Assembly: GCA_964405655.1 (NCBI GenBank)
Contig: CAYOOO010000005.1
Span: 6,335-70,334 of the forward strand
Origin: an uncultured Gammaproteobacteria bacterium
Lineage (GTDB): Bacteria > Patescibacteriota > Microgenomatia > Daviesbacterales > UBA10151
Direction of reading: 5' to 3'
Length of the DNA: 64,000 nucleotides
Shown: one piece after another, positions 10,197 to 49,700 of the stretch
How the letters are laid out: each line of letters starts with the position of its first letter
Numbering within the stretch: position 1 is the stretch's first letter
Notes under the pieces: generated by a model
Database searches by the model: none
What the model was told of the DNA's origin: nothing
The model's input: the letters and a program-made list of their open reading frames with translations, nothing else
Made by a program: the position numbers and the translations under genes

Positions 10197-12458
10197 TTAC
10201 TTATTAAATCCACCAACGAAGAAGTCCCAGATCATCTGAAGAAGACCTCTGCTTGTTTTAGCTCCTTGAACAGATGGAGCGGGCTGAGGTGCAGTCGTAC
10301 TCTCGGGTTGGGGCGCAGGAGCACTTGTTTGTGCAGGCTGAGGAGTGGACTGAGTACTAGTTGTAGTGGTTGATGAACCTCCACACTGACAGGAGCAGAA
10401 ATCACCATTCCAGTTACAAGTTCCTCCACAAGATCTGCATCCTGATTCCTGTGATTCTCTATTCATACCTGAAGGAGCTGTAGTTTGAGTGGTGGTAGTA
10501 CCTGTAGTGGTTGTTCCTGAAGTAGGTGAATTATAACCTCGGCAGTAACAGCTTCCACTACTCCAGTCACAAGTCCCACCACCAGATCTACAAGTAGCTT
10601 CTTGAGAGTCTCTAGTCATGGTGTTACCTGAGTAACTACCACTGCCACTATAAGAACTCGTTGTTCCGGAAGTAGATCCATAATTTGCATACTGACAATA
10701 TGATCCATTCCAAGTCCCACCACTATTCCTACATGCTTGTGCTGGATCATAATAGTTATTGGTGGTAGTAGCTGGTGCGCTGTAACCTTTACAATAACAG
10801 GAACCATTACTCCAATCGCAAGTTCCTCCACCCGCCTTGCAACCAGCCTCTTGTTGGTCCCTACTACTCATACCAGCATTATTGTTTCCTGAAATACCTT
10901 TCATACAATTACAGGTAGTGCCGTTGTTATCCCAACTACAATAACCACCTGATTGATTACAGGCTCTATTTTGATCTGCTGCAGGCGCATTGGTCTTAAC
11001 TTCTATCTGTGTGTAGTTGGGATTTCGATAATTTTGGCAACTACAAATTCCGCTGCTCCAATCGCAAGTACCACCGCCTGATTTACAGGTAGCCTCCTGG
11101 GAGTCTCTACTCATGGTACTACCACCATAGTAAACACCAGCACTGGTACACTGACAGGAGTTATTAGCCCAACTACAACCTGATTGGCTACACATCTTTG
11201 CAGGATCATAGTTATATGAAGCACATAGACAGCCGCCCCCAGCACCGCCAACCCAGGCACAACCTCCTCTGGCACAGGCAGCTGCAGGATCTGAGTAGTA
11301 TTTATCTGCCTGGTAATCTTTACAGGACGAACCATCCCAGTATTTACTGGCTTGTGTCGTACACTGATAAGCATCAGCGCTCTTATTTAAGGGTGTACAG
11401 ACTCCTCCCGGACCGATGTAGTAATCAGCTGGACAACGGACATAATAGTTGTAACTCTCAGTTTTTGGCCGGCATTGCTCAGGGTTGTCCCGACAGAACT
11501 CCATGTATTTTTGCTCAGCAGAACCTTTTTGGGGACTCATACATTTATCAGCGTTCTCTCGGCAGTGTCTGGCAAACTCTTCAGGGCTGGTGTAGTCACC
11601 AATTGGTCGAAAGTCTACTGCTCCACCAACAATACTTCTACAAGATTGGGGATTATTTTTACAATAATTTAAACAGCTCTCAGGTGAGTTACAACCTCCG
11701 GGTCCTCTAAATTCTCCAGGGCCACCACCAAAGTTTGAGCATTCCTGATAATTTTTGGGGTCCAGACAAAAAGTTTTACAGGTAGTTTCTGACGTGCAGC
11801 CTCCTGGGCCAACTCTCATCTCACCACCCCTTAACCCAACCTTTTGGGCAACTTCTGAACACTTTTGGCGATTCTCTTCTTTGTCGCAAAGACTCTTACA
11901 GGAGGTCGCATCATTGCAACCTAAAACCGCTTTTACCTTGTCTAAAACCCTCTCTGGTTCCTCAACATACCCGCCTGGTACTCCGATTTCTTTTGCCAGC
12001 TGATTACATTTATCATAGTTTTCCTCCTTATCACAAACATTTGCACAAGATTGAGGTGTGTTACACCCAAGAATCCTCTTGGCCGCAATTAAGAATTTCT
12101 GTTCAACTTCTGCTTTTAGACCTTCCCCCTGATAAAAACCTTTGGTCTTAGCATAGGCCACACAAGCATTTTCATTAACTGGATCTTCGCAAAAAGTTCT
12201 ACAGGATGAATAATTTGCACAATTACCCAGCTCGGCAATAGGAAAAACAATCCCGTATTTGCTGGTCTTTTTTACAACCTCTTCCTCAAGATCATCAACT
12301 CCATCATTATTTTCATCTAATACTGGATGCGAAGGGGAAATAAGAATTGGTACTTTATCAACTGTAACTAATATAAAAACAAAAACTACTAAAGGAAGAA
12401 GTAGCGATCTTAGTAATCTGCTTTTTAAAATGCTCAAAATTGAATTATTAAAAGTCAT
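10197..12458 (-). CDS. Giant secreted Cys-rich repeat protein (753 aa), copy 1 of a paralogous pair. It has a signal anchor, ~5 four-Cys repeats (LGCxxxxSCxxxCDxxxNxxKCxxxAK), four ~50-aa SRDSQEATC-SGGGTCDWSSGSC-C-GY repeats, a Thr/Ser/Pro/Gln-rich tail and a conserved hydrophobic C-terminus.
   Basis: Read from the translation. Strong collinearity with ORF 15445..17766 over the N-terminal 350 aa. Confidence 0.6.
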   Translation of the reverse strand: MTFNNSILSILKSRLLRSLLLPLVVFVFILVTVDKVPILISPSHPVLDENNDGVDDLEEEVVKKTSKYGIVFPIAELGNCANYSSCRTFCEDPVNENACVAYAKTKGFYQGEGLKAEVEQKFLIAAKRILGCNTPQSCANVCDKEENYDKCNQLAKEIGVPGGYVEEPERVLDKVKAVLGCNDATSCKSLCDKEENRQKCSEVAQKVGLRGGEMRVGPGGCTSETTCKTFCLDPKNYQECSNFGGGPGEFRGPGGCNSPESCLNYCKNNPQSCRSIVGGAVDFRPIGDYTSPEEFARHCRENADKCMSPQKGSAEQKYMEFCRDNPEQCRPKTESYNYYVRCPADYYIGPGGVCTPLNKSADAYQCTTQASKYWDGSSCKDYQADKYYSDPAAACARGGCAWVGGAGGGCLCASYNYDPAKMCSQSGCSWANNSCQCTSAGVYYGGSTMSRDSQEATCKSGGGTCDWSSGICSCQNYRNPNYTQIEVKTNAPAADQNRACNQSGGYCSWDNNGTTCNCMKGISGNNNAGMSSRDQQEAGCKAGGGTCDWSNGSCYCKGYSAPATTTNNYYDPAQACRNSGGTWNGSYCQYANYGSTSGTTSSYSGSGSYSGNTMTRDSQEATCRSGGGTCDWSSGSCYCRGYNSPTSGTTTTGTTTTQTTAPSGMNRESQESGCRSCGGTCNWNGDFCSCQCGGSSTTTTSTQSTPQPAQTSAPAPQPESTTAPQPAPSVQGAKTSRGLLQMIWDFFVGGFNK

Positions 12459-12463
12459 ATTTT

Positions 12464-12718
12464 TTACTTCACTGAGTCGAAGGGATTCTTATAAACTGCA
12501 AACGGGTTAACGTATTGAGACGATTTATCAAATGGATTACTATACTCAGATTTCAAGCCAATCTTTGCCTCTTTAGATTTTTCAGATTGAAAGGAAAAGG
12601 GCAATTTTTCAAGCGGGTTTTTGATTATTCCCTGAGAAACAAGAATTGCTAGTATAGCTACTAAAATAACTACTAGGAGTAAAGGAATTAAGGCGACTAT
12701 TCCTTTTTGATTGGGCAT
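12464..12718 (-). CDS. Small membrane-anchored protein (84 aa) with a PilX_N-like N-terminus (MPNQKGIVALIPLLLVVILV) and three NPF motifs; paralog of 17763..18008.
   Basis: Shared architecture: MxNQKGI + TM ... EYxNPF..QYVNPF..YKxPF. It sits 5 nt upstream of the giant gene. Confidence 0.5.
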   Translation of the reverse strand: MPNQKGIVALIPLLLVVILVAILAILVSQGIIKNPLEKLPFSFQSEKSKEAKIGLKSEYSNPFDKSSQYVNPFAVYKNPFDSVK

Positions 12719-12748
12719 TAATTAATTATTCACTGAAATTTTTTCTGA

Positions 12749-12776
12749 GAATGTGATTTAAATCACATTTTGTCAA
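12749..12776. promoter_or_regulatory. CRP/FNR-type palindrome AATGTGAtttaaaTCACATTT, abutting TTGACA on the sense (-) strand, upstream of the small gene and giant gene.
   Basis: Matches the 22-bp consensus AAATGTGAtctagaTCACATTT at 14 of 16 half-site positions. A second copy is at 18029-18056. Confidence 0.5.
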
Positions 12777-12794
12777 GAGATTGCGCTCAAGCAT

Positions 12795-13868
12795 TTAGTT
12801 CCTCTGGTAATCTTGGGCGATTCTATGAATATAACTCATGCAATCTATTTGTTCGTCCTGATTTTCTAAGCTCCGACAGATAACTTCTGATTTCTGCCTC
12901 CAATTCGGTAAATCTTGGAATACCATCTCGCCAGCTGCAAAGCGGAGACATCTTTTTTGGAAATTAACCAGCAGGGGTTGCATTTTACATAAGCTAATAA
13001 TTTTATCCGTATCTGCTTGAGAACTTAATACGCTATAAGATCCCAAAGAGTCAAAACATGCTTCTTTAAAAACCTCAGAAGTTGAGGTATTGCAAATTTC
13101 AGCTACCTGACCAACGACAAAACCAAATCTTCTAATCATCACCATTGGTTGATTTCTACCACAAGCGGTATCATAGATTTCAGGTAATTTATTACAAGGT
13201 GATAGTGGATCTTCCTGATTATAGAAGTTAGTGGAAGCAGATCTCTCAAATTCCATAAAGACTCCATCGTAACAAAACTGTTGGTTGTTAATTAACTTAT
13301 TACACTCTTTTAACGAAGCTTCTAAATCCTTAACTTTATGGAAACTTGCCAAACCGTGCCCAATTCCATGTACGCAGCTAGCAACTGGACCAGAGTTTTG
13401 CGGACCAAGTTTGTTACAAGCTTGCTCAGCCTCTGATAATTTCTCCGTTCCAAGGTAAAAGGCTTTATCTAAAAATCCGTGGAAGCAGCCGTAGGCAAAA
13501 GTAGGTGAACAAATAGACAAGCCTGAAAAGCCTGATTTGTCAAAAATGAGCCCTCCCATAAAGTGCGCTAAATCATGAGCAACATTACCACTCCCAGGAT
13601 TATTTTGATAAGTGTCAACGATAAAACTCCAAGTAGATTTTAAACCCTTTTGACCTGTTAACTTCTCAAGGTAACTATACTTTTCCTGTATATCTAGTTC
13701 CAAAAAGCCTTCTCTTGTTAAAGGAGTGAAATTTGAGTCTTGGGAAATTTCTGCATTTAGCGGTACTTGGTGATAAAACGGGTTTGTTAAAGCAAGTATA
13801 ATAAACCCTAATACCATAATCAAACCAATCAAAAAGTAGCGATCTTTTAAAACAGACAACTTAACCAT
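12795..13868 (-). CDS. Membrane-anchored Cys/His-rich repeat protein (357 aa) with ~7 repeats of C-x9-11-C-x-HG-x-GHG (e.g. CVHGIGHGL); paralog of 13869..15404 and 18070..19254.
   Basis: N-terminal TM; periodic Cys pairs; the HG-x-GHG motif degrades toward the C-terminus. Confidence 0.55.
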   Translation of the reverse strand: MVKLSVLKDRYFLIGLIMVLGFIILALTNPFYHQVPLNAEISQDSNFTPLTREGFLELDIQEKYSYLEKLTGQKGLKSTWSFIVDTYQNNPGSGNVAHDLAHFMGGLIFDKSGFSGLSICSPTFAYGCFHGFLDKAFYLGTEKLSEAEQACNKLGPQNSGPVASCVHGIGHGLASFHKVKDLEASLKECNKLINNQQFCYDGVFMEFERSASTNFYNQEDPLSPCNKLPEIYDTACGRNQPMVMIRRFGFVVGQVAEICNTSTSEVFKEACFDSLGSYSVLSSQADTDKIISLCKMQPLLVNFQKRCLRFAAGEMVFQDLPNWRQKSEVICRSLENQDEQIDCMSYIHRIAQDYQRN

Positions 13869-15404
13869 TTAATTTTTATATAACGAAGACTGGCAAGTTT
13901 GACTAAAGCCTGAATCCGCACTTTGACAAAGTTGTTCAATTTTTGTATTGTTGTTGCCGAATATATCTTTTAGTCTTTGACTCAATACCTGGAAACAGTG
14001 GGTTTTATCACGAGAGGAAGCCAACTTATTACAGAAAGTTTGTGGTTGATTAGTCATTGTTTCCCCCCAGAAGTCAACAATCACATTCAAACCACCGGTT
14101 ATACACTCTTGGAAATACCAAGGAGGCGAAACTTGGCAAAACTGAATAATCTTATCTGGATCTCTTAGGGTTTGACCAGCAATGTCCCTACCTAAACTTC
14201 TAAAACAAACACCCATCATATTCGCAGGGGTTCTCTGACATTCAGCAGCAATGGCTTGGAAGTTATAATTAAAAATACTTAGCATTCGGCTTGTTTGCAT
14301 TTGATAACACTCAAACTGGACTAACTCTGATTGATCAACACTGTTGCAAGGAAATTGAGGATCACTACTAACCCATTCAGTCTTATGACCTTTGACTGCT
14401 CCTCTCCCCTCGGCAACCATAATATTTTCCATGAACACTCCTCCAAAACACGATCTTTTAGCATAATCATTGGAAAGTTGATAACAGAGATTAATTGCTT
14501 TTGGTATATCATAGTTGATATAAGCAGTGAGACCATGACCAATGCCATGAAGGCACTCAAATTTAGAAAAATCTGTCTTGAATTTATTGCACAGGTTTTC
14601 AACTCTTTTCATTAAGGTTTTCTCCCTTTGAAGTCCCTTGGATAAGGCCTTTTGTTGGGCAATAAATGCTTCCATAGCACCATGGATAAAGCCGGAGTGA
14701 CAACTATAGTTTATTTTCTTAAAAACTGCTGATTTATAAGTTTTATAGGCAGTTCTTCCAATCAAATGCGCTTCTTGATGACAATCGACCTTGGATCCTC
14801 CGTCAGTATCTAAAACTAACTTATCCATTAATTGATTGCCTCCTAAAACAATTAACCAGTACTTTAGCTGTCTTTCGTCTTGAGCTAGTCGGTAAGCATC
14901 AGTGGTTTGCAGCTTCGCATAGAGTTTTTTAGGAAAAATTACATAATAAATTCTTGCTAAGTAAGCTTTAATATCATTTATCAATGAAGTTAAGTTAAAT
15001 TTTTTGGTGTTGTCTTTAGATGGTGTAAATTGTGTTGATCCAGATTCTGAAACTGTAATTTTCCCAATAAGATGAGGATTGAGGTGATCATGGAATTTAA
15101 ATATACCTGCTTTTTCAAACTTGAACTTCCAAACTTCGCCAGGTTGGATTGGCCTTTTTGGATCAAACTCTTTATAAATCAAATGAATGGGGTGAAAATC
15201 TGAAGCCGGCCAGCGTGCATCAGTATCCTCGTTTTTAAAAATTACCTCCTGACCTTTTTTAATTGTTATTTCATCTGGTTTGAATTCACCATCCTTAAGC
15301 AATATTGTTGCTTCCTCAGAGGACAAAACAGCTTTTGAGAAAAATATAGAATAACAAATTAATCCAAACAGGAAAACAAACCCAAACCTTCTCAGTCTAC
15401 CCAT
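13869..15404 (-). CDS. Membrane-anchored protein (511 aa) with an N-terminal cupredoxin-like beta-sandwich (no Cys ligand; HDHLNPH) followed by ~9 Cys/His repeats (CHSGFIHG, CLHGIGHGL).
   Basis: Translation read directly. The stop abuts the start of the next paralog. Confidence 0.55.
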   Translation of the reverse strand: MGRLRRFGFVFLFGLICYSIFFSKAVLSSEEATILLKDGEFKPDEITIKKGQEVIFKNEDTDARWPASDFHPIHLIYKEFDPKRPIQPGEVWKFKFEKAGIFKFHDHLNPHLIGKITVSESGSTQFTPSKDNTKKFNLTSLINDIKAYLARIYYVIFPKKLYAKLQTTDAYRLAQDERQLKYWLIVLGGNQLMDKLVLDTDGGSKVDCHQEAHLIGRTAYKTYKSAVFKKINYSCHSGFIHGAMEAFIAQQKALSKGLQREKTLMKRVENLCNKFKTDFSKFECLHGIGHGLTAYINYDIPKAINLCYQLSNDYAKRSCFGGVFMENIMVAEGRGAVKGHKTEWVSSDPQFPCNSVDQSELVQFECYQMQTSRMLSIFNYNFQAIAAECQRTPANMMGVCFRSLGRDIAGQTLRDPDKIIQFCQVSPPWYFQECITGGLNVIVDFWGETMTNQPQTFCNKLASSRDKTHCFQVLSQRLKDIFGNNNTKIEQLCQSADSGFSQTCQSSLYKN

Positions 15405-15444
15405 CTTTCCGTCTAATATACCATATTTTGAATTTCTTATGGGT

Positions 15445-17766
15445 CTAATTTTTTCCTAGCAAGAAGTTAATCACTCTCTGAAGCCAGCTGACTTGAGTGC
15501 TTGCTCCTGCTACACCGCCAGCGTCACTGCTAGGAGGTGGGGGCGGAGGGGGCTCTGGTGGAGGCGGGGGAGGGGTTTCATAGCTTGGAGTTCCATAAGA
15601 AGGGGTAGCATAACTCGGTGTACCGTAACTTGGGGTAGCATAACTTGGACTCGGATAAGAATAAGATGGTGATGGGTATGAGTAAGATCCAGGGGTGGGA
15701 TAACTATAGGTACCTGAGGGAGTGTAATAGCTAGGTGAAGGATAAGAATAGCTACCAGAAGGTGTTGGATAAGAATAACCAGGTGTTGGGTAGGAGTAGC
15801 CTGATGAAGGAGTTAAGTAGCTTTCTGGTGTGTAGTAAGTTGGGGTGGTATAACTACTACCTGGTGGAGGAGTGTAGTAGGATGGTGTTACATAATTTCC
15901 TCCAGAAGGAGTGTAGTAGGTCGGGGAGGTGTAGGTACTGCCAGGAGGAGGAGTGTAATAGCTAGGTGTATTATAAACCGCTGGTGTATAGTAGCTTGGG
16001 GTGGTGTAATTTGAACCAGGAGGTGGGGTATAGTAGGTCGGTGTGGTATATGAACCTGTTACATTGATTGGAGTATAGTAGGTTGGTGTGGTATAAGGCG
16101 GTGGCGTGGTGTAATTAGGTGTGGTATAACTCGATCCCGGAGGTGGAGTATAGTAATAGGGTGTAGTGTACCTTGGTGGGGTGTAGTAAGTCGGGGTGGT
16201 GTAATTTGAGCCAAGAGGAGGGGTATAGTAGGAAGGCGTGTTATATGAAGGTGTTGGGTAATTTCCTTGCGGAGTTGGATAGTAGGTTCCTGGTGTATAG
16301 TAAGTTGGGGTGGTATAACTACTACCTGGTGGAGGAGTGTAATAAGAAGGAGTCAAGTAGATACCTGGCGTATAGTAGCTTGGGGTGGTGTAATTTGATC
16401 CCGGAGGTGGAGTGTAGTAGACAGGCGTGACATAAAAACTTGTTGCGGGCGGGGTATAGTAAACAGAATCTTTAGGCGGAGTATAGTAAGTACCTGGGAC
16501 AAAATTATCTAGGGGTCTTGGAGATTTAGCATCAAATCCCTGACATTTGCCTGGATTGTCCTTACAAAAGTCATAACAAGCGCCTGGTGAGTCACAATTC
16601 CCCATCTCTTTAACTGGCTCCATTTTGACAGGAGTCCCGGGTGTGTAATATATAGAGGGTAAATATTTATCTGTTGGTCTCGGGCCACTTCCATCAAAGC
16701 CTCCACATTTACCTGGGTTTTCTTTACAATAGTCATAACAGGCTCCAGGGGTCTTACAATTTCCCATATCAGGTCTAGGTTGAAAGTATGCACCACCTGC
16801 TGTTGGGTTAATCCCTGGTGGCGGGCTGTCTTGACAGCTTGATCCACTCCAATATTTACCTCCTTGGGCACAGGATTGAGCTACTTGTGTCTTATCATTC
16901 GGTGTGCAAGCACCTCCAGGTCCAAAATTCTGTCCAGCCGGGCAAGCTACCGGAACATAGGCTCCATTGGAACCTGGTGCATAGCTCCTACAATCAGCTG
17001 GGTTTTGTTCACAATGCGATCGGCAGGATTCAGGGTTATTACATCCTCCTGGGCCTTGGAATTGTTGGCCTGGTGGAGCAAAAGCCTGACATTTACTAAA
17101 GTTATTTGGATCAGCGCAGAAGTTTTTACAAGTAGCATCTGAATTACATCCTCCTGGGCCCTCTTTAACCTCTCCCCCTAAAAGCCCAACTGACTTAGCA
17201 AACTGGTCACATTTTGCAGCATTGGCCTGGTTATCACAAAAGCTGCTACAGCTGGCAGCTGAATCACAACCTAAGATTTTCTTGGCTTGATCTAAAAACT
17301 GTGGTTTATCTGGTTCTTGGACATAACCTCCAATAATCTCTTCTTCTTTAGCAAAACCATCACATTTATCTTTATTTTCAGCTTTTGAGCAGAAGTCTAA
17401 ACACTCTTCCTTATCTTTACAACCTAAACCATCTTGAGTTTTCTTCCAAAATTCATCATCAGCAGCTAAAACTTTATCCTGTTTATAAAAACCCTTTTTC
17501 TTGGCATAGTCTGCACAGGAGGAAAAGTTGACTGGATCATCGCAATAAGCTAAACATTCTCCTTTGTTCTCGCAGTTGCCCAAATCTTTGATGGGAAAGA
17601 CTACAGCGTTATCTTGTCCACCTGGCGCAGGTGAGGCAGTTGGGCTTGGGGCAGGAGAAGGGGATGTTGTTTGAGCTTTTGCTTGAGTACTAAAAAAGAA
17701 GACTAGAATTGAAGCTGCCAGTAGTATTGCTAACTTATTTAGATTTCCTCTAATTAAATTGATCAT
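15445..17766 (-). CDS. Giant secreted Cys-rich repeat protein (773 aa), copy 2. Its N-terminal 4-Cys repeats are homologous to copy 1. The C-terminal ~300 aa are tandem Tyr/Thr/Pro-rich repeats (TPSYYTPPPGSNYTTPTYYTP), then poly-Pro and a conserved hydrophobic C-terminus.
   Basis: Signal peptide; PIKDLGNCENKGECLAYCDDPVNFSSCADYAKKKGFY aligns with the copy-1 PIAELGNC... block. The start overlaps the small gene stop (ATGA). Confidence 0.6.
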   Translation of the reverse strand: MINLIRGNLNKLAILLAASILVFFFSTQAKAQTTSPSPAPSPTASPAPGGQDNAVVFPIKDLGNCENKGECLAYCDDPVNFSSCADYAKKKGFYKQDKVLAADDEFWKKTQDGLGCKDKEECLDFCSKAENKDKCDGFAKEEEIIGGYVQEPDKPQFLDQAKKILGCDSAASCSSFCDNQANAAKCDQFAKSVGLLGGEVKEGPGGCNSDATCKNFCADPNNFSKCQAFAPPGQQFQGPGGCNNPESCRSHCEQNPADCRSYAPGSNGAYVPVACPAGQNFGPGGACTPNDKTQVAQSCAQGGKYWSGSSCQDSPPPGINPTAGGAYFQPRPDMGNCKTPGACYDYCKENPGKCGGFDGSGPRPTDKYLPSIYYTPGTPVKMEPVKEMGNCDSPGACYDFCKDNPGKCQGFDAKSPRPLDNFVPGTYYTPPKDSVYYTPPATSFYVTPVYYTPPPGSNYTTPSYYTPGIYLTPSYYTPPPGSSYTTPTYYTPGTYYPTPQGNYPTPSYNTPSYYTPPLGSNYTTPTYYTPPRYTTPYYYTPPPGSSYTTPNYTTPPPYTTPTYYTPINVTGSYTTPTYYTPPPGSNYTTPSYYTPAVYNTPSYYTPPPGSTYTSPTYYTPSGGNYVTPSYYTPPPGSSYTTPTYYTPESYLTPSSGYSYPTPGYSYPTPSGSYSYPSPSYYTPSGTYSYPTPGSYSYPSPSYSYPSPSYATPSYGTPSYATPSYGTPSYETPPPPPPEPPPPPPPSSDAGGVAGASTQVSWLQRVINFLLGKN
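15546..16500 (-). repeat. In-frame tandem DNA repeats of ~30-60 bp encoding the YYTPPPGS(N/S)YTTP(S/T)YYTP units inside the 773-aa gene.
   Basis: Visible periodicity of ggtggagg/agtgtagtag/ccaggtgg units on the + strand. Confidence 0.6.
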
Positions 17767-18008
17767 TTTTGTTCAAAAGTAAGAAACGGACTCTTATATT
17801 CATCAAAAGGATTAACATATTGGTTTTCCTTTTTGAAAGGATTTTTATACTCTGTTTTAACCGCTACTTTTGGCTCTTGCTTGACTAGGTTAGAGAAACC
17901 GGGGATTTTAAATGAACCTTTAGAGTAAAAGAGGAATAAACCGACGCCAAGGATAACAACAATTAACACAAGCAGTAAAAGGTGGGCGATTCCTTTTTGA
18001 TTAATCAT
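17763..18008 (-). CDS. Small PilX_N-like NPF protein (81 aa), copy 2.
   Basis: MINQKGIAHLLLLVLIVVILGVGLFLF ... EYKNPFKKENQYVNPFDEYKSPF; paralog of 12464..12718. Confidence 0.5.
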   Translation of the reverse strand: MINQKGIAHLLLLVLIVVILGVGLFLFYSKGSFKIPGFSNLVKQEPKVAVKTEYKNPFKKENQYVNPFDEYKSPFLTFEQK

Positions 18009-18028
18009 TTTTTTAGTACTTAACTAAA

Positions 18029-18056
18029 TAATGTGACGCAGATCACAATTTGTCAA
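18029..18056. promoter_or_regulatory. Second CRP/FNR-type palindrome AAATGTGAcgcagaTCACAATT with adjacent TTGACA, upstream of cassette copy 2.
   Basis: Same arrangement as 12749-12776 (TTGACAAAtTGTGA-N6-TCACA on the sense strand). Confidence 0.5.
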
Positions 18057-18069
18057 GTATTAAAATTTC

Positions 18070-19254
18070 CTATATTTGGGAGAGGCAGCCTGTTCTGAAG
18101 GGCTCTTCTAAAGAGGAACATAACTCAAGCTTTCTGACATTGCTTGAAGGCTCTGAAGTAATTTGCCCGATAATATTTTGGTAACAGCTTTGTTTGCCCT
18201 CAGCAGAGATCTTTTTGCAGATCTCTATGGCAGTCGTAGAGTCTCCCACTGAATAATAAGAACCTGCATTAACTGAAATACAACTATTTAGCCAATCACT
18301 ACCCATTTGCTGACAAAGGCTAAAGACCTTTGATATATCACCCTCAGTTAACGGATGAATTTGTCTTGCCAGGTTATCCATACACCAGTCAGTATATTGC
18401 TTATTACCAGTATTTAAACAAGCCTCCGCTGTCTTAGGGATACCTCCCAAATACATCTGATAAATCCTTGCAGCTTGATTTAACCAACAGCCCTTTTGGT
18501 ATTTTTCCCCAAAATAATTACATGGAAAATAAGGATCATCAGATAACCAATCTCTTTTTGGAGTTTTATCTTTTCCCCAATCATGAACTCCGAAGAGATT
18601 CTCCATAAACGCACCATTATGACAAGAAGAGAGTGCCTCTGGAAACTGGCTTTCTTTTTCAAAGACTTCGTCACAGGTATTTAAGGCCTTGGGAAGATCA
18701 TAATTCCAAATTGCCAAAATTGCATGGCCAGCAGCATGGGCACATTGAAAATATCTTAAGGGAGACTCTTTGCATTTATCTGCCATCCCAGCAACTACCT
18801 CAAATCCTTGATCGCTAGCAGCCTCAATAATTGCTCCGTGATAACAGGCATATAAAAAGTAGTCTTTGCACTTTAGAATTGAATCCAGTTTATATTTTTG
18901 ATAGGCATAAAAACCAATTTGATGGACAGCTAGGTGTCCTTCACCAGTATGAGGAAGGCTAGAGTGTTCTAAAATTTCTAGGGCTTGTTCCACATCTACT
19001 CTTTCGACTAATTTCCTTGTTGCTTTAAGCCGAATTTCTTGATTGTCTGACAAGATTTCTGTCAGTTCAGGAACATTTTCTGGCGTATATAATATCTTAC
19101 CTGCGGCTTGAGAGGTTGGTGTTAAGTTAATAACTGACTTAAATTTCATCAGTTCCTTTTTATCTAATTTAGGATAAGGTAATAGAGCAATAAGTAAAAG
19201 AACTAAAACTATTAGGCTTAAAAAGAAAATTAACTTGGTATTCCTAAAATACAT
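18070..19254 (-). CDS. Membrane-anchored Cys/His repeat protein (394 aa) with CAHAAGHAIL and CYHGAIIE motifs; paralog of 12795..13868 and 13869..15404.
   Basis: N-terminal TM; periodic C-x9-11-C repeats. Confidence 0.55.
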   Translation of the reverse strand: MYFRNTKLIFFLSLIVLVLLLIALLPYPKLDKKELMKFKSVINLTPTSQAAGKILYTPENVPELTEILSDNQEIRLKATRKLVERVDVEQALEILEHSSLPHTGEGHLAVHQIGFYAYQKYKLDSILKCKDYFLYACYHGAIIEAASDQGFEVVAGMADKCKESPLRYFQCAHAAGHAILAIWNYDLPKALNTCDEVFEKESQFPEALSSCHNGAFMENLFGVHDWGKDKTPKRDWLSDDPYFPCNYFGEKYQKGCWLNQAARIYQMYLGGIPKTAEACLNTGNKQYTDWCMDNLARQIHPLTEGDISKVFSLCQQMGSDWLNSCISVNAGSYYSVGDSTTAIEICKKISAEGKQSCYQNIIGQITSEPSSNVRKLELCSSLEEPFRTGCLSQI

Positions 19255-19268: not shown

Positions 19269-19679
19269 TCATCTTATTCGGTGTCTTCTTTTGACTCGCA
19301 GCCTGGCTAGAGATTTTTCCAAAATAGCCAAAGTTTCAGCATACTCCTCACCTGAAAGTTTTTGTTCTAAAGCTGCCTCAGCCCGTTTTTTGGCTTCCTC
19401 AGCAGCTCTTTCATCTATCTCCTCAGCTTTTTCTGCCAGATCAGCCATCACTGTTAAGATATTATTACTCACTTGCAAAAAGCCTTCACCCACTGCCAAA
19501 ACATCAACTTTTCCCCCCTTTTTAATTCGTAGCTCACCAGGCACTACTTTAGCCAATAAATTAGCGTGATGAGGCAGGATACCAATCTCTCCTTGTTCAG
19601 TTGAGATATTAACTTGATCAACTGTCTCATCAAAAATTTCTTTCTCAGGTGTCACTAACTTCAGATGCAAATCCGCCAT
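19269..19679 (-). CDS. atpC: F1 ATP synthase epsilon subunit, separated from the rest of the atp operon.
   Basis: MADLHLKLVTPEKEIF...GEIGILPHHANLLAKVVPGELRI... plus a C-terminal helical hairpin. The ORF can extend to 19703. Confidence 0.8.
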   Translation of the reverse strand: MADLHLKLVTPEKEIFDETVDQVNISTEQGEIGILPHHANLLAKVVPGELRIKKGGKVDVLAVGEGFLQVSNNILTVMADLAEKAEEIDERAAEEAKKRAEAALEQKLSGEEYAETLAILEKSLARLRVKRRHRIR

Positions 19680-19703
19680 AGCGGTATTATCGCAAATTTG
19701 CAT

Positions 19704-22841: not shown

Positions 22842-23324
22842 ATGTCACTAGAATCACAAACAAATAGAAACTATCCTGGATATGTTCAACTAATTCGGGA
22901 TTTGTTTATTACCCGAAAAGGGCTAATCTCAAACTTAACGCCTACTGAGTTGTTAGCTCCTGATAAAAAAGAGGCTTATTTACAACACGTTATAAAAAGT
23001 CCCCAAGAGCTAGGTATGTTGGCAGATGCTTTAGATGAGGCATTTAGAGAATCCAAACAAGCACAGCTCTTGTCTGATCGGGAAGAAGCAGTCCTAAGAA
23101 TGCGCTACAGTCTAGACGATCCTGCCCTAGAAGGCAGAACTTTAAGCGAAGTTGCTGCTCAGACCCCCAGATTAACCACTACCACCAAAAGATCAATAGG
23201 CCAACAAGGTTTATCAGTGGAAAGAACCAGGACTATTATTGAGGAAGCACTGGCTAAAATTAGACATTACAGCAGACAAAAACCAATCTTTGGGTTTACA
23301 GCCAACACTGATTTTTACTTATGA
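22842..23324 (+). CDS. Sigma-70 region-4-like HTH protein (160 aa).
   Basis: LSDREEAVLRMRY...TLSEVAAQ...GLSVERTRTIIEEALAKIR matches the sigma region 4 pattern. Confidence 0.45.
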   Translation: MSLESQTNRNYPGYVQLIRDLFITRKGLISNLTPTELLAPDKKEAYLQHVIKSPQELGMLADALDEAFRESKQAQLLSDREEAVLRMRYSLDDPALEGRTLSEVAAQTPRLTTTTKRSIGQQGLSVERTRTIIEEALAKIRHYSRQKPIFGFTANTDFYL

Positions 23325-24787: not shown

Positions 24788-27008
<2,221 letters not shown>

Positions 27009-27011
27009 AAT

Positions 27012-28517
27012 TTAATTTTTGCTTGTTTTCTGAAAGACCTTAACAAACTCTTTAGTAACCTTTTCTAATTCTTTGGTTAATTTCTCATCTAACTCTTTCT
27101 TCTCTGCTATCTTAGTCAAAAGCTTTTTAGTTCTTAATCTTAAATATTTGACATATTCTTCTTCTGCCTCTTTGACTTTATCAACTGATATTTCATCAAA
27201 ATGGCCATTAGTTACAGCCCAAAGGGAAGCTACTTGCTCCTCAACTGAAACAGGGGAGAAAGGAGGTTGTTTTAGAACCTCAGTAATTCTTCTGCCTCTT
27301 TCAATTTGCATCTTGGTATTTGGATCTAAATCAGAGGAGAATTGAGCAAACGCAGCCAGTTCTCTAAATTGGGCTAAGTCCAGCTTAAGCCTACCTGCTA
27401 CGCCTTTCATAGCTTTAGTCTGGGCTGCACCACCAACCCTTGAGACTGATAAACCCACATTTAAAGCCGGCCTGATTCCTGCAAAAAATAAGTCTGTCTC
27501 CAAATAAATCTGTCCATCAGTAATAGAGATAACATTTGTTGGAATATAGGCTGAGACATCTCCGGCTTGAGTCTCTATAATAGGTAGGGCTGTTAAAGAA
27601 CCTCCACCAAAATCCTCATTTAACCTAGCTGCCCGCTCTAAAAGCCTGGAGTGAAGATAAAAGACATCGCCTGGATAAGCTTCTCTTCCAGAAGGCCTTC
27701 TTAAAAGCAGGGACATCTGTCTGTAAGAGTTAGCATGTTTTGACAGATCATCATAAACGACCAAGGCATCCCTGCCTTGATCCATGAAATATTCTCCAAT
27801 TGCACAACCAGAGTAGGGAGCCAGGTATTGCATAGGAGCGGGATCAGAAGCTGTTGCTGATAGCACAATGGTGTGATCCATGGCACCAAACTCCTCTAGT
27901 CTAGCTACAATTTGAGCAACTTTAGAGGTCTTTTGACCAATTGCCACATAAATACAAATAACGTCTTTCTGATTAATGATTGTATCTACGGCAATGGTGG
28001 TCTTGCCTGTATTTCGATCGCCAATAATTAGCTCCCTTTGACCCCGACCAATCGGGATCAGGGCATCAATTGCCTTAATACCTGTTTGCAAAGGAGTGTT
28101 AACTGACTGTCTGGTAATAACTCCTGGAGCAATCTTTTCAACTGGGTAGGCCTTATCTGTTTTAATTGGACCCTTACCATCAATCGGTTGACCTAAGGCA
28201 TTAACAACCCGACCAATCATTGAGTCGCCAACTGGTACTTCCAAAACCTTACCAGTTGTTTTAACAGTATCACCTTCCTTAACCTTGGTAAAATCTCCCA
28301 AGATAACGCTCCCAACATTGTATTGCTCTAAATTCAAAGCTAAACCAAAAATCTCTTTACCAAAGTCCAAAAGCTCAGAAGATTGAACATCTGATAAACC
28401 ATCTATCCTGGCTATTCCATCTCCAGCCTCAGTTACAGTGCCGATATTTTCTTTGGTCGCCTTAAGCTTAAAACCCTTTATCTGTCTTTCAATCTGCGAA
28501 ACTAAATCACTAACCAT
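27012..28517 (-). CDS. atpA: F1 ATP synthase alpha subunit.
   Basis: GDRNTGKT P-loop; alpha-specific regions. Confidence 0.95.
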
Positions 28518-28905
28518 GAATTATTCCTCCAATTTGTAAAATTTTGTCTTGTAAGGAGTTATCAATCAATAAATCACCAACTCTTATTCTCAAACCAGCA
28601 ATAAGATTAGGATTTACTACCACTTTAGTTTGATTAACAGGAAAATCTTTTTTAACCTGCCTTTCAATCTTTGCTAGCTCGCTTTTTGATAAATCAACTG
28701 CTGCCTCTATCACCAAAGTAGTTTTATCAAGCTCTCTTTTTATTCCTTTACTGTACTCAGTTAAGGCAAAAATAGCCTCAGAAGTGGGAAGTTTTTCTAG
28801 ATCTTTGATAATTTTTTGGGCTTTATTCTCAGACAGTTTGCCCGCACTAAAACTTGCCTGGACCAACTTTTCAACTAACTTTTTTAACAGCTTATTTTTT
28901 TTCAT
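28510..28905 (-). CDS. atpH: ATP synthase delta (OSCP) subunit, short form (C-terminal domain only).
   Basis: Position between atpF and atpA; C-terminal delta-like ...[22 protein letters not shown]. Confidence 0.6.
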
Positions 28906-28907
28906 TT

Positions 28908-29402
28908 TTAAAGTCTTTTGACACTATCCTCAACCATCTTCTTTTGCTCAGGTCTTGTTAAGATCTTGCCAGTAACTTTCTCTAAAGCACTGACCACAAT
29001 TTCTGCCAGTTCTTCTCTTAACTCCTGATGCATTTTTTCCCGCTCAAGTTTAATAGAGTCTTGACCTTTTTTAAGCATCTCGTCAATATCTTTCTGAGTT
29101 TTAGTATGGGCCTGCTGAATAATTAGATCAGCAGATTTTGTTGCCTCTGCGACAATTTTTCTTGCCTCTAACGAAACTTTTTCTAAAGCTTTATCCCGAT
29201 CTTCCCCGGTTTGTTTAAGCTGCCTTTCTATTTCCTCAGCATCTTTAAGACTTTGGGCAATCCGTTCTTTCCTCTCCTCCAAAACTTTAAGCAGAGGTTT
29301 ATATAGCAGTCTTTTTAATATCCAAAGCAACACTAAAAAATTAACTACTTGCGCAGCCAAAAGCAACGGTTTAATTCCAAAATCTTTAAGTATTTGTTCC
29401 AT
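28908..29402 (-). CDS. atpF: Fo ATP synthase b subunit.
   Basis: Single N-terminal TM followed by a long charged coiled coil. Confidence 0.75.
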   Translation of the reverse strand: MEQILKDFGIKPLLLAAQVVNFLVLLWILKRLLYKPLLKVLEERKERIAQSLKDAEEIERQLKQTGEDRDKALEKVSLEARKIVAEATKSADLIIQQAHTKTQKDIDEMLKKGQDSIKLEREKMHQELREELAEIVVSALEKVTGKILTRPEQKKMVEDSVKRL

Positions 29403-29432
29403 TATAATAGCAGTTAGTAGTGGGTGACGACG

Positions 29433-29500
29433 AGCGGGGCGCCCCTGAATGGGGCCCCAGGCTTGTTAGCCTAGTGGTAAATTCCCCTGTCTCGAGTCGG
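29433..29500 (-). promoter_or_regulatory. GC-rich palindromic hairpins (GGGGCGCCCC, GGGGCCCC, GCCGACTCGAGACAGGGG) in the atpE-atpF intergenic region. Probably a partial terminator or processing element.
   Basis: A local GC island in an AT-rich genome, immediately 3' of atpE on the sense strand. Confidence 0.3.
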
Positions 29501-29522
29501 CAGGACCCACAGCACAAAAAAA

Positions 29523-29753
<231 letters not shown>

Positions 29754-30506
29754 TCAATGAGAGGTTTCATGTTTCTCAGTAAGTAGCACCATAAAAACAA
29801 GCGTCAGCATCATAAATACTGCCGCTTGGACAAACCCGACTATAATCTCCAGAAAATAAAATGGCAAAGGTACTAAAAAGGCAGTCCACTTTGCTAAAGA
29901 TGCGACAGTGGATAAAACCACTTCGCCCGCAAATATATTACCAAAAAGTCGGAAAGAAAGCGATACTACTTTTGTTGCCTCACCAACAAGCTCTAAAAGA
30001 CCAACAAATAAAAAAATTGGGCTTAGAGAAACCCACCTCTTTAGATAATCTTTCAATCCTAAATACTTAACAGCAAAAAAATGAGTAACAACTGCTGAAA
30101 CCAAAGCGAGGGATAAGGTCATGTTTAAATCAGAGTTGATTGAACGAAGTAAGGGAACAAAAATCTCTTTACCATCATGGCGCTCAAAAAAACCAATTGT
30201 GGCAAACCCCGGTAGTAAACCCAACCAATTAGCAGTAATGATAAAAAGAAAGAAGGTCATCACAAAGGGGAAGAAAACTTTGGCTTTTGAATGAGATAGA
30301 TCTTCTACCATGCTGTAGCCGCCTTCAACGATCATTTCAAAAAAATTTTGTAAGCCTCCTGGTACCAGCTGAACTTTGCGGGTAGCTAAATAACTAACAA
30401 CAATCAAAACAACCATCACCAGCCAGCTAACAAGCAAAGTATTAGTAATAGGAAAGTTATTAATAAACCCGATTACCTCGGGTGCCAAGACTATCTCATG
30501 TTCCAT
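29754..30506 (-). CDS. atpB: Fo ATP synthase a subunit.
   Basis: Polytopic; conserved Arg region (LSFRLFGNIFAGE). Confidence 0.85.
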   Translation of the reverse strand: MEHEIVLAPEVIGFINNFPITNTLLVSWLVMVVLIVVSYLATRKVQLVPGGLQNFFEMIVEGGYSMVEDLSHSKAKVFFPFVMTFFLFIITANWLGLLPGFATIGFFERHDGKEIFVPLLRSINSDLNMTLSLALVSAVVTHFFAVKYLGLKDYLKRWVSLSPIFLFVGLLELVGEATKVVSLSFRLFGNIFAGEVVLSTVASLAKWTAFLVPLPFYFLEIIVGFVQAAVFMMLTLVFMVLLTEKHETSH

Positions 30507-30569
30507 CAGTTAAAACACATTAATTTTATCTTGTTTAAATTAAAGACTCAAGGGGTAGAGAAGAAAATA

Positions 30570-30917
30570 TTAGACAGTTTTTTTGCGGCGGGGATAATTC
30601 TTAAAAAAAATCTTTCCTGCATCAGGATACATAAGTCCTTGAAAGATTCCCCCAACTAAAAATCCCTTGGTAAAAGTATAATCCAAAAAACCAACTGTTA
30701 GAGGAATTGAAACCACCAGCAGGATTAGAAGATTTAACCAGTGGTGCAACCAGATGGTTCTACCAAAAAGACTGAATCTAATGCTCGGGCTAATCTCTAT
30801 CGGCCCCTTTTTTAAAGATGGGAGTTTTCTCCTGACAGAAGACTTGGGATGGGTCAGGTAATGAAAAAGCACTATACTCAAAAAAAGTCCCGGTAGGAAC
30901 TTTATCACTTCATCCAT
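30570..30917 (-). CDS. Small membrane protein upstream of atpB, possibly AtpI/AtpZ-like.
   Basis: Position and two or three TM helices only. Confidence 0.3.
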   Translation of the reverse strand: MDEVIKFLPGLFLSIVLFHYLTHPKSSVRRKLPSLKKGPIEISPSIRFSLFGRTIWLHHWLNLLILLVVSIPLTVGFLDYTFTKGFLVGGIFQGLMYPDAGKIFFKNYPRRKKTV

Positions 30918-39838: not shown

Positions 39839-40546
39839 TTACTCAAACGGATCTTTTTTACCTTTTGGTCCACTAGCTACTGTCACAGTAGTAATGGGCG
39901 TAGACCTTTGGGCACTCTTGATTTTAGTTAGGAGATTAACATCTTTCTCATCAAAGGCTGGTAGAGGTTGTTCAACTTCACCAATACTTTTAGGTAGCTC
40001 CTCAAAATAAGCAAGCATTGACATTGATGCTTGGACATCATTAGATTTTCTCAAACCTATAACTTCGATCTTATCCAGTTTTAGAATTCTGGGAATTTTA
40101 GCTAGTTGGGAAATAAAATTTTTAACAGTATCTGTATTACCAGCTATTTCCATTTTGATTTGGAAGCTTTGGATTTTACCAGTATTTGCCGTCACATTTG
40201 AAAAAGAAAGGGCGTTGAGTTTTAAGCGGTTGTTAGAAACCAAAAAGAGTAGTTGCCCAACAGCCCCAGTCACATCTTGGTTATCTGGAAGTGCAGCTAA
40301 AGCGACATCAATATTTTCTTTGTAAACATTTTGGTCAATTTGCTGGAGGCTATTTAATTTATCTGACAGGATAGTTTGCTTTTGTTTTGTCTCCTCTAAA
40401 GTTTTATTGACAGTTAAATATCTTATGAATTGAGGAATAACTACAAAGATTAATAAAATCAAACAAACAAGAACTGATCCAACAGGCAGAATAAATATTC
40501 TATATTTCTCAGGGACTATATTTTTAAAAGGTAGCTTCTCTAGCAT
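39839..40546 (-). CDS. pilO: Type IV pilus assembly protein PilO-like.
   Basis: Single N-terminal TM plus coiled coil; position after pilM-pilN. Confidence 0.55.
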   Translation of the reverse strand: MLEKLPFKNIVPEKYRIFILPVGSVLVCLILLIFVVIPQFIRYLTVNKTLEETKQKQTILSDKLNSLQQIDQNVYKENIDVALAALPDNQDVTGAVGQLLFLVSNNRLKLNALSFSNVTANTGKIQSFQIKMEIAGNTDTVKNFISQLAKIPRILKLDKIEVIGLRKSNDVQASMSMLAYFEELPKSIGEVEQPLPAFDEKDVNLLTKIKSAQRSTPITTVTVASGPKGKKDPFE

Positions 40547-40553
40547 AATATCT

Positions 40554-41117
40554 TTACTGAGTAAAACTGGCTTTTGATAAGACTACTGTTAACTCAAATC
40601 TGATTACACTAGTAGGGCTTCTATTAAGATTCTCTACCTTAGTAGAAACTATTTTACCCTGATGCTCAGATGGGTTTGTTAACTTGTTAAAAAAAGTCTG
40701 GAGCGATTTGGTGCTAGTAGTTTCACCTGTCAGACTGATAATATCTTTTTTACTGTTATTGAAACTAATTAGAATCATATCTTTGGGCATAAGTTCAGTT
40801 ACCAAGTTAAATGACTGAGATTGCAAAATTCCTGCTGAGGTTAGAGATTTAATCCCATCAAGTCTATCTTTTAAGACAAAGGTTAAACCTTCATGCCTTT
40901 TATAAGTAGCAATCTTTTCCTTAATCTGAGAAATCTGACTTTCAGTATTTCTGATCGAAAAGTTATCACTTAAACTCAAAAACAACACAATTGCAGCAAC
41001 TGCAACAGTAAATACTAAAAGTCCAATACTGATTTGCAAAACCAGTGATTTTTTGGCTTCTTCTCTTTTGGCCAGTGTTAAATCTATCGGTAGTAAATTA
41101 ATATTTATCTGGTTCAT
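40554..41117 (-). CDS. pilN: Type IV pilus assembly protein PilN-like.
   Basis: Single TM after a short N-terminus; overlaps pilM. Confidence 0.6.
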   Translation of the reverse strand: MNQININLLPIDLTLAKREEAKKSLVLQISIGLLVFTVAVAAIVLFLSLSDNFSIRNTESQISQIKEKIATYKRHEGLTFVLKDRLDGIKSLTSAGILQSQSFNLVTELMPKDMILISFNNSKKDIISLTGETTSTKSLQTFFNKLTNPSEHQGKIVSTKVENLNRSPTSVIRFELTVVLSKASFTQ

Positions 41118-42151
41118 TCTTCTTTCATCCCCAGGCCTACGGCCACTGCATAAAAAGGTCCTTCAGTCGCAAGCTTATTTTTAACACTTTGGTCAACGTT
41201 AACTGCCGTCCAAGGATCTGCCTCTTGAACCTCCAAGCCTAAAGAATCAGCAAAATATTTAACCATCCCAGGCAATTGGGCTCCACCTCCTGTTAAAATT
41301 ATTCTTTTAACAGAAAGTTGTCTGTTTTGAGTTTCATGAGCTTGAATAACTCTTTTAGTTTCAGCGATTATCACATCTACTATTGGTTTGAGAGACTGAA
41401 AGAGCTTACCTTCAAGCTGATCTTCCAAAAGTCCGTAAACCTTTTTATATTCCTCTGCCTGGATCAGCTCAAAATTAAAACTTTGAGCTATGGCCCGGGT
41501 CAGCGCAACACCGCCAGTAGAAATTGATCTTGTCAAAAGAATTAAATTTTCTGAGATAACTGCAAAGTCCGTGGTGGTTGCACCAAGTTGGACAATTAAA
41601 GAAGTAGGGGAGTAAGGATTAGTACCTACCAGAGATCTCGTCACTGCAATTAGTTCAGTCTCAATTGAAATAGGTTTTAACTCAGCCATTTGCATCAATT
41701 TAAGGTATTTGTTAATCAATATTTTGGGAGTAGCTACTACAAAAACTACGGTCCTACTCTTTGGTCCTTTTTCGCTCGAGCGGTAGATGACTTGATAATT
41801 TAAGTTAACATCTTGAACAGGCATTGGTACAAATTCCTCAGCTGCGTAAGGGATGGCTTGGGCCAACTCTTCATTTGTTAAATAAGGTAGGTCATAAACA
41901 ACCCTTGTAAAGATCTTTGATTCTGGAAGGGCGATATAAACCTCTCGGGTTGGAGCGCTAATTTCGTTCATTAAATTTTTAATTGAAATAGCAACTGCTT
42001 CTAAATCCAAATCTGCGTCTGAAGCAATGCCCGGTTGGGGAGAAGCAATATGACCCAAAGATAAAAGCTTGGGTGGTTTTTGTTTGTGAGATAAAACTAC
42101 TACTTTGATTGATGAAAAACCTATATCAAGACCAACTTTTTCTTGGGGCAT
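41114..42151 (-). CDS. pilM: Type IV pilus assembly ATPase-like PilM (actin fold).
   Basis: GLDIGFSSIKVVVL N-terminus; ILTGGGAQLPGM. Confidence 0.8.
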   Translation of the reverse strand: MPQEKVGLDIGFSSIKVVVLSHKQKPPKLLSLGHIASPQPGIASDADLDLEAVAISIKNLMNEISAPTREVYIALPESKIFTRVVYDLPYLTNEELAQAIPYAAEEFVPMPVQDVNLNYQVIYRSSEKGPKSRTVVFVVATPKILINKYLKLMQMAELKPISIETELIAVTRSLVGTNPYSPTSLIVQLGATTTDFAVISENLILLTRSISTGGVALTRAIAQSFNFELIQAEEYKKVYGLLEDQLEGKLFQSLKPIVDVIIAETKRVIQAHETQNRQLSVKRIILTGGGAQLPGMVKYFADSLGLEVQEADPWTAVNVDQSVKNKLATEGPFYAVAVGLGMKEE

Positions 42152-42236
42152 GTTTACAGTATAAAATATGTGCCGGCTTTTTTGGTAGTAGAAACTTCAT
42201 CAGCAAATAAAAGGATGACCATAAAAAGCCGAAAAT

Positions 42237-44051: not shown

Positions 44052-44613
44052 TACGCAAATTTACTTGACCACTGACGCTACTTTCTTGGGTTTCTTGGTT
44101 GACTGTCCGGGCAACTTTGGCAATAAAGTTAACTGAGCTTGCAGCTTGTGGGCTGACAATATTGGAATTTTGATCATAGTAGCTGAAGGTCAGTGAAGAA
44201 AGCTGGGTTGTCAGCAGCCTATTTTCACTCTGCCTGCTACTTAATGCATCAGGGAAAATTTTTTTCCTTAAAAGTTTAGCATTTTGGCTATCTTGAGTGA
44301 TCACTAAGTAGTCATAGGTATTAGCTATGACTGAGCCTGAGGCATTTACAGAAGGCAGGGTTAAAACTAGCGTCTGGGGACCACTAGTATAAGTAGTTAC
44401 ACCACCTACAAAACTTACTGCAACAGACGAAGCATTTCTGATAGAGTCATAGATCTGGGAAGAAATTTGGTTGGTATCCAATCCTTGCTCAACCTGAGCA
44501 CTTTCTCTTAAAAAAAATGCATTGTTTTGGACAAAAATTCTAACCAGTATTATTCCTACTAGCGAGGCAACCCCAATATAAATAAGTACCTCAAGTAAAC
44601 TGATCCCTTTCAC
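44044..44613 (-). CDS. Minor pilin-like protein (class III signal MKG|ISLLEV).
   Basis: G-1/E+5 prepilin motif plus a hydrophobic helix. Confidence 0.6.
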   Translation of the reverse strand: MKGISLLEVLIYIGVASLVGIILVRIFVQNNAFFLRESAQVEQGLDTNQISSQIYDSIRNASSVAVSFVGGVTTYTSGPQTLVLTLPSVNASGSVIANTYDYLVITQDSQNAKLLRKKIFPDALSSRQSENRLLTTQLSSLTFSYYDQNSNIVSPQAASSVNFIAKVARTVNQETQESSVSGQVNLRND

Positions 44614-45943: not shown

Positions 45944-45983
45944 ATACTTAATTATTGATTCTTTTCCAACTAATATTCAACAT

Positions 45984-47827: not shown

Positions 47828-47829
47828 AT

Positions 47830-48506: not shown

Positions 48507-48558
48507 TAAAACTATTTTGTCACTAATTTGGGTTCAAAACAAGAGAGTCAAGAAAGAA

Positions 48559-49645: not shown

Positions 49646-49700
49646 TTATATATTTACTATTCCATGTTGAAAAACAGTTGTCAATAGTCAATTTAGAGGA

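Follow-up and report, generated by a model that had tools for sequence, protein, structure and literature searches.

The analysed stretch of DNA (64 kb, hereafter the window) contains two paralogous gene cassettes, which, like all genes relevant here, are encoded on the minus strand, and each of which consists of one small and one large gene preceded by a short inverted repeat (dyad). According to the list of open reading frames and their translations, the first gene of cassette copy 2 (17763-18008) encodes an 81-amino-acid protein with one transmembrane (TM) helix and a triple NPF motif, while the second (15445-17766) encodes a 773-amino-acid secreted or anchored cysteine-rich protein with a disordered tail rich in proline, threonine and tyrosine. 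Cassette copy 1 (10197-12718) correspondingly encodes an 84-amino-acid TM/NPF protein (12464-12718) and a 753-amino-acid cysteine-rich protein (10197-12458). Between the two copies, the small proteins are 43% identical and the large ones 37% identical over their N-terminal 380 residues. A gene for a cupredoxin-like protein of 511 amino acids (13869-15404; Pfam Cupredoxin_1, E 7e-10) is located between the two cassettes, 40 nt downstream of cassette 2, with which it is possibly co-transcribed; a terminator scan yielded few matches, all within coding regions and none intergenic. A cupredoxin gene likewise follows the cassette in six loci from relatives (L056, L057, L095, L097, L098 and L099). 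The upstream neighbour of cassette 2 (18070-19254) encodes a membrane-anchored protein of 394 amino acids that is rich in cysteine and histidine, and it is paralogous to the 357-amino-acid protein encoded upstream of cassette 1 (12795-13868; 24% identity, E 4e-17). No Pfam or NCBIfam match was obtained for either protein. Both are membrane-anchored, rich in cysteine and histidine and marked by recurrent C..HG/GH motifs, and this upstream neighbour of the cassette is also found in relatives.

The small proteins, which did not match any family, belong to a group of 70-130 amino acids in which an N-terminus of the M-x-NQKG type and a single TM helix are combined with a triple NPF motif (EYxNPFDKxxQYVNPFxxYKNPF) that is strongly conserved at the C-terminus, and their gene lies just upstream of the cysteine-rich gene in about 50 Microgenomates loci (L001-L055). 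An N-terminus of the kind QKG followed by hydrophobic residues is present on another protein from the Candidate Phyla Radiation (CPR) as well (L078, 2877-3710); it may represent a signal of the prepilin type. The large cysteine-rich proteins, similarly without Pfam or NCBIfam match, are built of repeated four-cysteine helical modules up to approximately residue 420, followed by approximately 340 residues of disordered proline-, threonine- and tyrosine-rich repeats and a C-terminal helix. DNA repeats at 15572-16442 fall within the part of the 773-amino-acid gene that encodes this disordered region. An AlphaFold2 model of the 773-amino-acid protein was of low confidence (pLDDT 48.5) and too poor for a fold search. 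In the protein collection, 99 homologues of this protein were found, the best of them 60% identical and all from Microgenomates-type metagenome-assembled genomes (MAGs) where named; the names were those of Microgenomates (Daviesbacteria, Levybacteria and related CPR groups), among which the organism of the window is accordingly placed.

Further along the window, the ATP synthase epsilon gene (19269-19703, minus strand) is separated by approximately 5 kb from the remaining atp operon (24788-30917, minus strand), the gap being occupied by plus-strand genes for carbonic-anhydrase-like, AHSA1-like, methyltransferase and sigma70-region-4 proteins. The epsilon gene adjoins the cassette in L095 as well. 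A type IV pilus gene cluster (scanned at 39839-55235; PilO and proteins with an N-terminal methylation motif) precedes a gene for an IS200-type Y1 transposase (55359-56033).

A motif search of the window revealed the perfect dyad TGTGA-N6-TCACA at 18032-18047, upstream of cassette copy 2, and a twin at 12752-12767, upstream of cassette copy 1. No other perfect match occurs in the 64 kb, in which 0.04 are expected from the mean of 100 shuffled sequences, none of which reached two. Both dyads thus have the inverted 5-bp TGTGA/TCACA half-sites, 6 bp apart, of a CRP-type site; the copy-2 dyad fits a matrix derived from 18 sites (see below), and in its twin the perfect arm is 7 bp long (AATGTGA...TCACATT). 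Along the minus (coding) strand, the copy-2 region reads cTTGACAAATTGTGATCTGCGTCACATTAT, followed by 17 nt and the ATG, while the copy-1 region reads cTTGACAAAATGTGATTTAAATCACATTCT, followed by 27 nt and the ATG; the string TTGACAAANTGTGA occurs exactly twice in the window, once per cassette. In both cases a -35 hexamer TTGACA (minus strand, 18051-18056 and 12771-12776) precedes the dyad by 3 nt. A sequence-only reading of the locus had proposed a CRP/FNR-type palindrome upstream of cassette copy 2 with the same adjacent TTGACA as in copy 1, and both elements are present as described, the palindrome being perfect. The letters it quoted for the dyad and its flank were correct in the motif and wrong in the first base: the plus strand at 18029-18036 reads TAATGTGA (first base T), not AAATGTGA, and the full plus-strand stretch 18029-18056 reads TAATGTGACGCAGATCACAATTTGTCAA. 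Looser dyads with up to two mismatches were not enriched in the window (22 found vs 27.6 expected), and a wider regulon is not readable from the window. A one-mismatch dyad, TGTCACTAGAATCACA, is located at 22843-22858 on the start codon of a 160-amino-acid protein consisting of sigma-70 region 4 only (22842-23324), and chance could account for the frequency of such a site.

The dyad coincides with a predicted promoter. A simple promoter scan assigned TTGACA-17-CATTAT (10 of 12 consensus matches) to 18056-18028 of the minus strand, nearly the same interval as in the sequence-only reading, and no minus-strand site between 9.9 and 19.8 kb was more promoter-like. The putative -10 hexamer CATTAT (minus strand, 18028-18033), a consensus match only, overlaps the promoter-proximal half-site, so that the dyad fills the spacer between the -35 and -10 hexamers and extends into the latter, with its centre at about -18.5 relative to the predicted promoter.

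When the two upstream regions were aligned, a single non-coding block, CTTGACAAAnTGTGATnTnnnTCACATT, was found to be shared. Over the 29 nt from CTTGACAA to TCACATT, 23 positions are identical between the copies, whereas the 60 nt immediately upstream agree at 14 positions, which is the chance level, and the leaders between dyad and ATG differ by 10 nt in length and cannot be aligned. Since the duplication is old, as judged from proteins that are 37-43% identical, and the flanks have been randomised, a neutral block of 29 nt would not have survived. Gene conversion was considered as a source of the shared block and rejected: a recent conversion tract should also have covered the leader, which lies between the block and the conserved gene start.

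An orthologue scan, in which one genome per species was used, returned 55 loci with the cysteine-rich gene, among which L001-L011 represent the copy-2-type clade. In nearly all 55 loci the small TM/NPF gene stands in front, and an nAtAAT box lies 17-19 nt after a CTTGACAA box. In L002, L004-L008, L056, L057, L061, L062 and L099, the small gene is closely preceded by a dyad with at most one mismatch; the dyads of L002 (9-bp arms) and L099 are perfect. The background density of such dyads, determined over 428 kb of loci, was 3e-5 per nt, corresponding to about 0.2 expected in all target regions. In an alignment of eight intergenic regions, only CTTGACAA and ATTGTGA..A.ATTACAATA were invariant, meaning that within the clade that carries a regulator gene (see below) the half-sites are conserved while neighbouring bases vary. 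The matrix of 18 sites, aATTGTGAyyNaaATYACAATa, displays the CRP-type pattern with a T after TGTGA and an A before TCACA, and many of the orthologous sites have one TGTAA/TTACA half.

The position of the dyad differs by lineage, its distance from TTGACA being 3, 12 or 42 nt downstream, or 8 nt upstream, while its internal geometry is constant. In 11 of the 13 dyad-bearing cassette loci, the dyad is placed between the -35 hexamer and the start codon, 3 to 42 nt after TTGACA. In L004-type loci it covers the -10 region, and the invariant A and T in its spacer match a -10 hexamer spaced 19 nt from TTGACA. The dyads of L002 and L005 are found approximately 42 nt after TTGACA, directly before the start codon. 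The perfect dyad of L099 (2684-2699), where the cassette is 60% identical and no regulator gene is present, lies 8 nt upstream of the -35 hexamer with its centre near -53, and the one-mismatch dyads of L024 and L022 lie 6 nt upstream of a -35 hexamer. In these three loci the core promoter would not be occluded, and the sign of regulation may therefore differ or be mixed. Such repeated shifts of an otherwise constant dyad in front of one gene resemble turnover of a binding site, and this argues for function. No dyad was found at either cassette of L095, the closest syntenic relative (sharing the ATP synthase epsilon gene, a 384-amino-acid gene and both cassettes), nor at the cassette of L096, L097 or L098; the site is therefore dispensable for the cassette.

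The presence of the dyad follows that of a regulator gene. In L004, L006, L007 and L008, an extra gene encoding 211-238 amino acids is inserted between the cysteine/histidine-rich gene and the dyad, and its product matches the Pfam families HTH_Crp_2, cNMP_binding and Crp. Relatives of this regulator numbered 108, and those named by NCBI were Crp/Fnr family transcriptional regulators from Levybacteria and Daviesbacteria. The same gene order was encountered four more times (L056, L057, L061 and L062): the cysteine/histidine-rich gene, the crp-like gene, CTTGACAA, 11-12 nt, ATTGTGAyyNAaATTACAAT, the small gene, the large gene and the cupredoxin gene. The dyad is present in all eight copy-2-type loci with an adjacent regulator gene, compared to four of 13 without one (Fisher p = 0.005, which is not a strict probability, the loci being phylogenetically related).

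More distant crp-like genes were found beside similar dyads in other gene contexts. In L059/L060 (3501-7443) and L063 (1943-6075), where the crp-like gene product is 45-47% identical, TGTGATTsCAATCACC occurs less than 30 nt after the stop codon and is followed by a csoR-like gene, a DUF1573 gene and a gene for a multicopper oxidase or a copper-type (heavy-metal) P-type ATPase. In L064 (44% identity), a perfect dyad precedes an operon of FAD oxidase and crp genes, and a one-mismatch dyad adjoins a DoxX gene. The one-mismatch dyad of L024 is located at the 3' end of a crp-like gene. Metagenome contigs were also scanned blind for the DNA pattern TTGACAAANTGTGANNNNNNTCACA; of the 30 loci obtained, most came from unrelated high-GC bacteria, and the informative ones were four low-GC loci. 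In these (L073/L081, L078 and L088), a divergent Crp/Fnr-family gene lies beside the motif (HMM E about 1e-27) and a secreted FN3-like gene lies downstream; the layout in L073, L078 and L088, TTGACAAA-N-TGTGA, places the dyad 3 nt after TTGACA, as in the window. In L078 (1700-2710), L073, L081 and L088, one dyad is common to the divergent pair of Crp/Fnr-family and FN3-like genes and is situated in the spacer of the FN3 promoter. Such a dyad could be used by both genes of the pair.

The sequence-only reading had further held that the palindrome is a CRP/FNR-type operator whose half-sites are under selection rather than a relic of the duplication, and that orthologous loci lacking the half-sites would speak against this. 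The outcome on the latter point is mixed, as many orthologous loci do lack the dyad, L095 at both cassettes, while all eight with the regulator gene have kept it. Selection on the half-sites is nevertheless supported by the age of the paralogues, the randomised flanks, the regulator gene adjoining the dyad in orthologues and the similar dyads elsewhere, and the assignment to the CRP/FNR type is strengthened by the adjacent Crp/Fnr genes of the relatives, their CRP-like recognition helix and the three other gene contexts.

The consensus of E. coli CRP sites is AAATGTGATCTAGATCACATTT, and the sites described here share with it the core TGTGA-N6-TCACA, the T after TGTGA, the A before TCACA and the A/T flanks. 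The regulators of the relatives likewise share with E. coli CRP the cNMP_binding plus HTH_Crp_2 architecture and the R-E-x-x-x-R/K contact residues. A recognition helix of the form R-E-[ST]-V-[TS]-[RK] was present in 82 of the 89 full-length family members and in all homologues from the independent contexts (RESVTR, RETVTR and similar), and it aligns with RETVGR of E. coli CRP, in which Arg180, Glu181 and Arg185 make base-specific contacts (PMC12531629). At the level of the whole protein, the regulators are approximately 24% identical to E. coli CRP, and in the BLAST alignment other residues stand in place of the cAMP-contacting E72, R82 and S83. The best PDB match was NtcA (8h3v, 3la2; E 2.5e-16), followed by mycobacterial and corynebacterial CRP-type proteins, CooA and CAP, and the NCBIfam equivalog cut-offs were not reached for either NtcA (57 vs 245 bits) or CRP (39.6 vs 266 bits). 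Cysteine is absent from P0100, one of the orthologous regulators, and from 50 of the 89 family members. As no NCBIfam equivalog cut-off was reached, the cAMP contacts are not conserved and most members have no cysteine, the regulators are assigned to a separate subfamily, and by the sequence criteria checked the signal is predicted not to be cAMP.

The site was compared with known systems. A classical cAMP-CRP activation site was rejected: the window dyad sits in the promoter spacer and -10 hexamer instead of at -41.5 or -61.5, and the regulator is neither a CRP equivalog nor equipped with the cAMP contacts. Cyanobacterial NtcA, which recognises GTA-N8-TAC, shares the dimer-site geometry and is the best PDB and NCBIfam match, but its helix reads R-V-T-V-T-R, with V in place of the E found here, and there is no nitrogen-assimilation context in the present loci; together with the TGTGA rather than TGTA-type half-sites of the window and the low equivalog score, this led to rejection of an NtcA box. 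FNR (TTGAT-N4-ATCAA) belongs to the same superfamily and has the same two-fold site plan, but the half-site differs, and an FNR-type iron-sulphur cluster is excluded by the lack of any cysteine in P0100 and in 50 of 89 members, so that an FNR box was rejected too. The solved-structure matches after NtcA included GlxR and M. tuberculosis CRP, which are CRP-type regulators of actinobacteria (PDB 4cyd, 3d0s and others). They recognise TGTGA-N6-TCACA, bind cAMP and often act as repressors when this site overlaps the core promoter, as is proposed for the window dyad. The regulators described here differ from them in their CPR lineage and in their unrelated targets.

We consider it rather probable that 18032-18047 is the operator of a homodimeric CRP/FNR-family factor, of the repressor type, in the promoter of cassette copy 2. 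A repressor operator is proposed because the dyad overlaps the core promoter and because the distances between its centre and the ATG, 31.5 nt in copy 2 and 11.5-25.5 nt in the orthologues, are unsuited to class I or class II activation. A dimer of the factor would bind the dyad within the sigma-70-type promoter (TTGACA, 17 nt, CATTAT) and thereby exclude RNA polymerase, which would repress the genes for the small TM/NPF protein, the large cysteine-rich protein and probably the cupredoxin-like protein. The twin at 12752-12767 would place both paralogous cassettes under the same control, and they are probably co-regulated from the promoters at 18028-18056 and 12749-12776. We infer that the regulator is present in this organism, binds the dyad and represses; its gene would be located in the same genome, outside the 64-kb window. 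As to the sensed signal, the gene neighbourhoods hint at copper or redox, since cupredoxin, csoR-like, multicopper oxidase, copper ATPase, DoxX and FAD oxidase genes recur among the neighbours.

A different explanation, which we regard as unlikely, is that the dyads were inherited from a regulator-bearing ancestor and became inert when the regulator was lost. No Crp/Fnr gene was found in the 64-kb window (best tblastn E 0.19, best family HMM E 1.6), not even between the 394-amino-acid gene and the promoter, the spot where relatives carry the crp-like gene, and the nearest syntenic relative, L095, possesses neither the regulator gene nor the dyad. Inert sites would be expected to decay, as they appear to have done in L097, where a decayed-looking left half, TTGACAAAGTGTGg, is left; in the window, two perfect 5+5 dyads persist though the other non-coding bases have been randomised. 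Moreover, L002, L005 and L099 keep good dyads without an adjacent regulator gene, which makes regulators encoded elsewhere in the genome plausible, and Daviesbacteria MAGs do encode members of the regulator family.

There is also a slim chance that the dyad is an activator site, from which the regulator would draw RNA polymerase to a weak -10 hexamer further downstream in a class-II-like arrangement, possibly with a leaderless mRNA. Such an arrangement is suggested by copy 1 (12718-12767), where exactly 41.5 nt separate the centre of the dyad from the A of the downstream ATG and where AATAAT (12730-12725) occupies -12 to -7 of a hypothetical leaderless transcript, a class-II-like geometry that is not common to copy 2. 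The dyads upstream of a -35 hexamer in L099, L024 and L022 point in the same direction, as does the L078-type dyad, which precedes the inferred start of the divergent crp gene by approximately 44.5 nt. The copy-2 dyad, however, is not centred near -41.5 or -61.5, or at further helical repeats upstream, and the distances to the ATG given above for copy 2 and the orthologues are too short for class I or class II activation. In addition, the dyad directly follows a consensus TTGACA and takes up both the spacer and the -10 hexamer.

That the block is conserved for RNA polymerase alone, its symmetry being incidental and no dedicated factor being involved, we hold to be improbable. The block does coincide with the predicted promoter, the right half TTACAAT of L004-type loci doubles as a -10-like TACAAT, and L098 has kept TTGACA-19-TACAAT without the left half. 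Yet most orthologous promoters retain CTTGACAA and the -10 hexamer without a dyad, so that polymerase does not need it, and the dyad shifts relative to the -35 hexamer with its internal geometry fixed and co-occurs with the Crp/Fnr gene. A nucleic-acid hairpin in an RNA leader or terminator, for which the copy-2 fold (-13.2 kcal/mol, z = -3.7) of a longer imperfect palindrome at 18016-18058, which includes the -35 box and is not shared by copy 1, and the presumed 5' leader position of the dyad in L002 and L005 might speak, or an operator of another family such as LacI, suggested by the resemblance of AATTGTGA...ACAAT to lacO1, is highly improbable, given that the copy-1 fold is unremarkable (z = -1.15), that the window dyad overlaps the -10 hexamer and would be mostly untranscribed, that no U-tract and, over 12400-18400, no Rfam match were found, that the gene repeatedly adjoining the dyad is Crp/Fnr and not LacI, and that the TGTGA/TCACA spacing is 6, the lac operator half-sites being spaced by N4 or N5 and those of CRP by N6.

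Returning to a CRP/FNR-family repressor as the preferred reading, the site is of a kind already known, namely a CRP-type operator overlapping the core promoter, and its extra interest lies in the lineage. The CPR/Patescibacteria have tiny genomes with few regulators, and how they control transcription is almost unstudied; a 2025 survey described full-length CRP/FNR proteins as notably absent from CPR. The Microgenomates loci described here hold full-length members of the CRP/FNR family together with a recognisable cognate operator and target. A tentative extension, for which we claim only a limited likelihood, is that a branch of the CRP/FNR family specific to CPR, lacking both cAMP-binding residues and cysteines, acts as a promoter-occluding repressor of copper- or redox-related envelope genes, with a movable regulator gene that is gained and lost among the cassette genes and an operator that is re-created at differing promoter positions. 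Its targets would comprise the cysteine-rich cassette and the cupredoxin gene of the window and, in relatives, csoR with the multicopper oxidase or copper ATPase operon. The loci offer a testable triad of regulator, operator and target in organisms not yet grown, the target being a lineage-specific cysteine-rich surface cassette beside a cupredoxin gene, and if the proposal of a copper/redox repressor is true, this would be the first pair of regulator and operator that is tractable in the Candidate Phyla Radiation.
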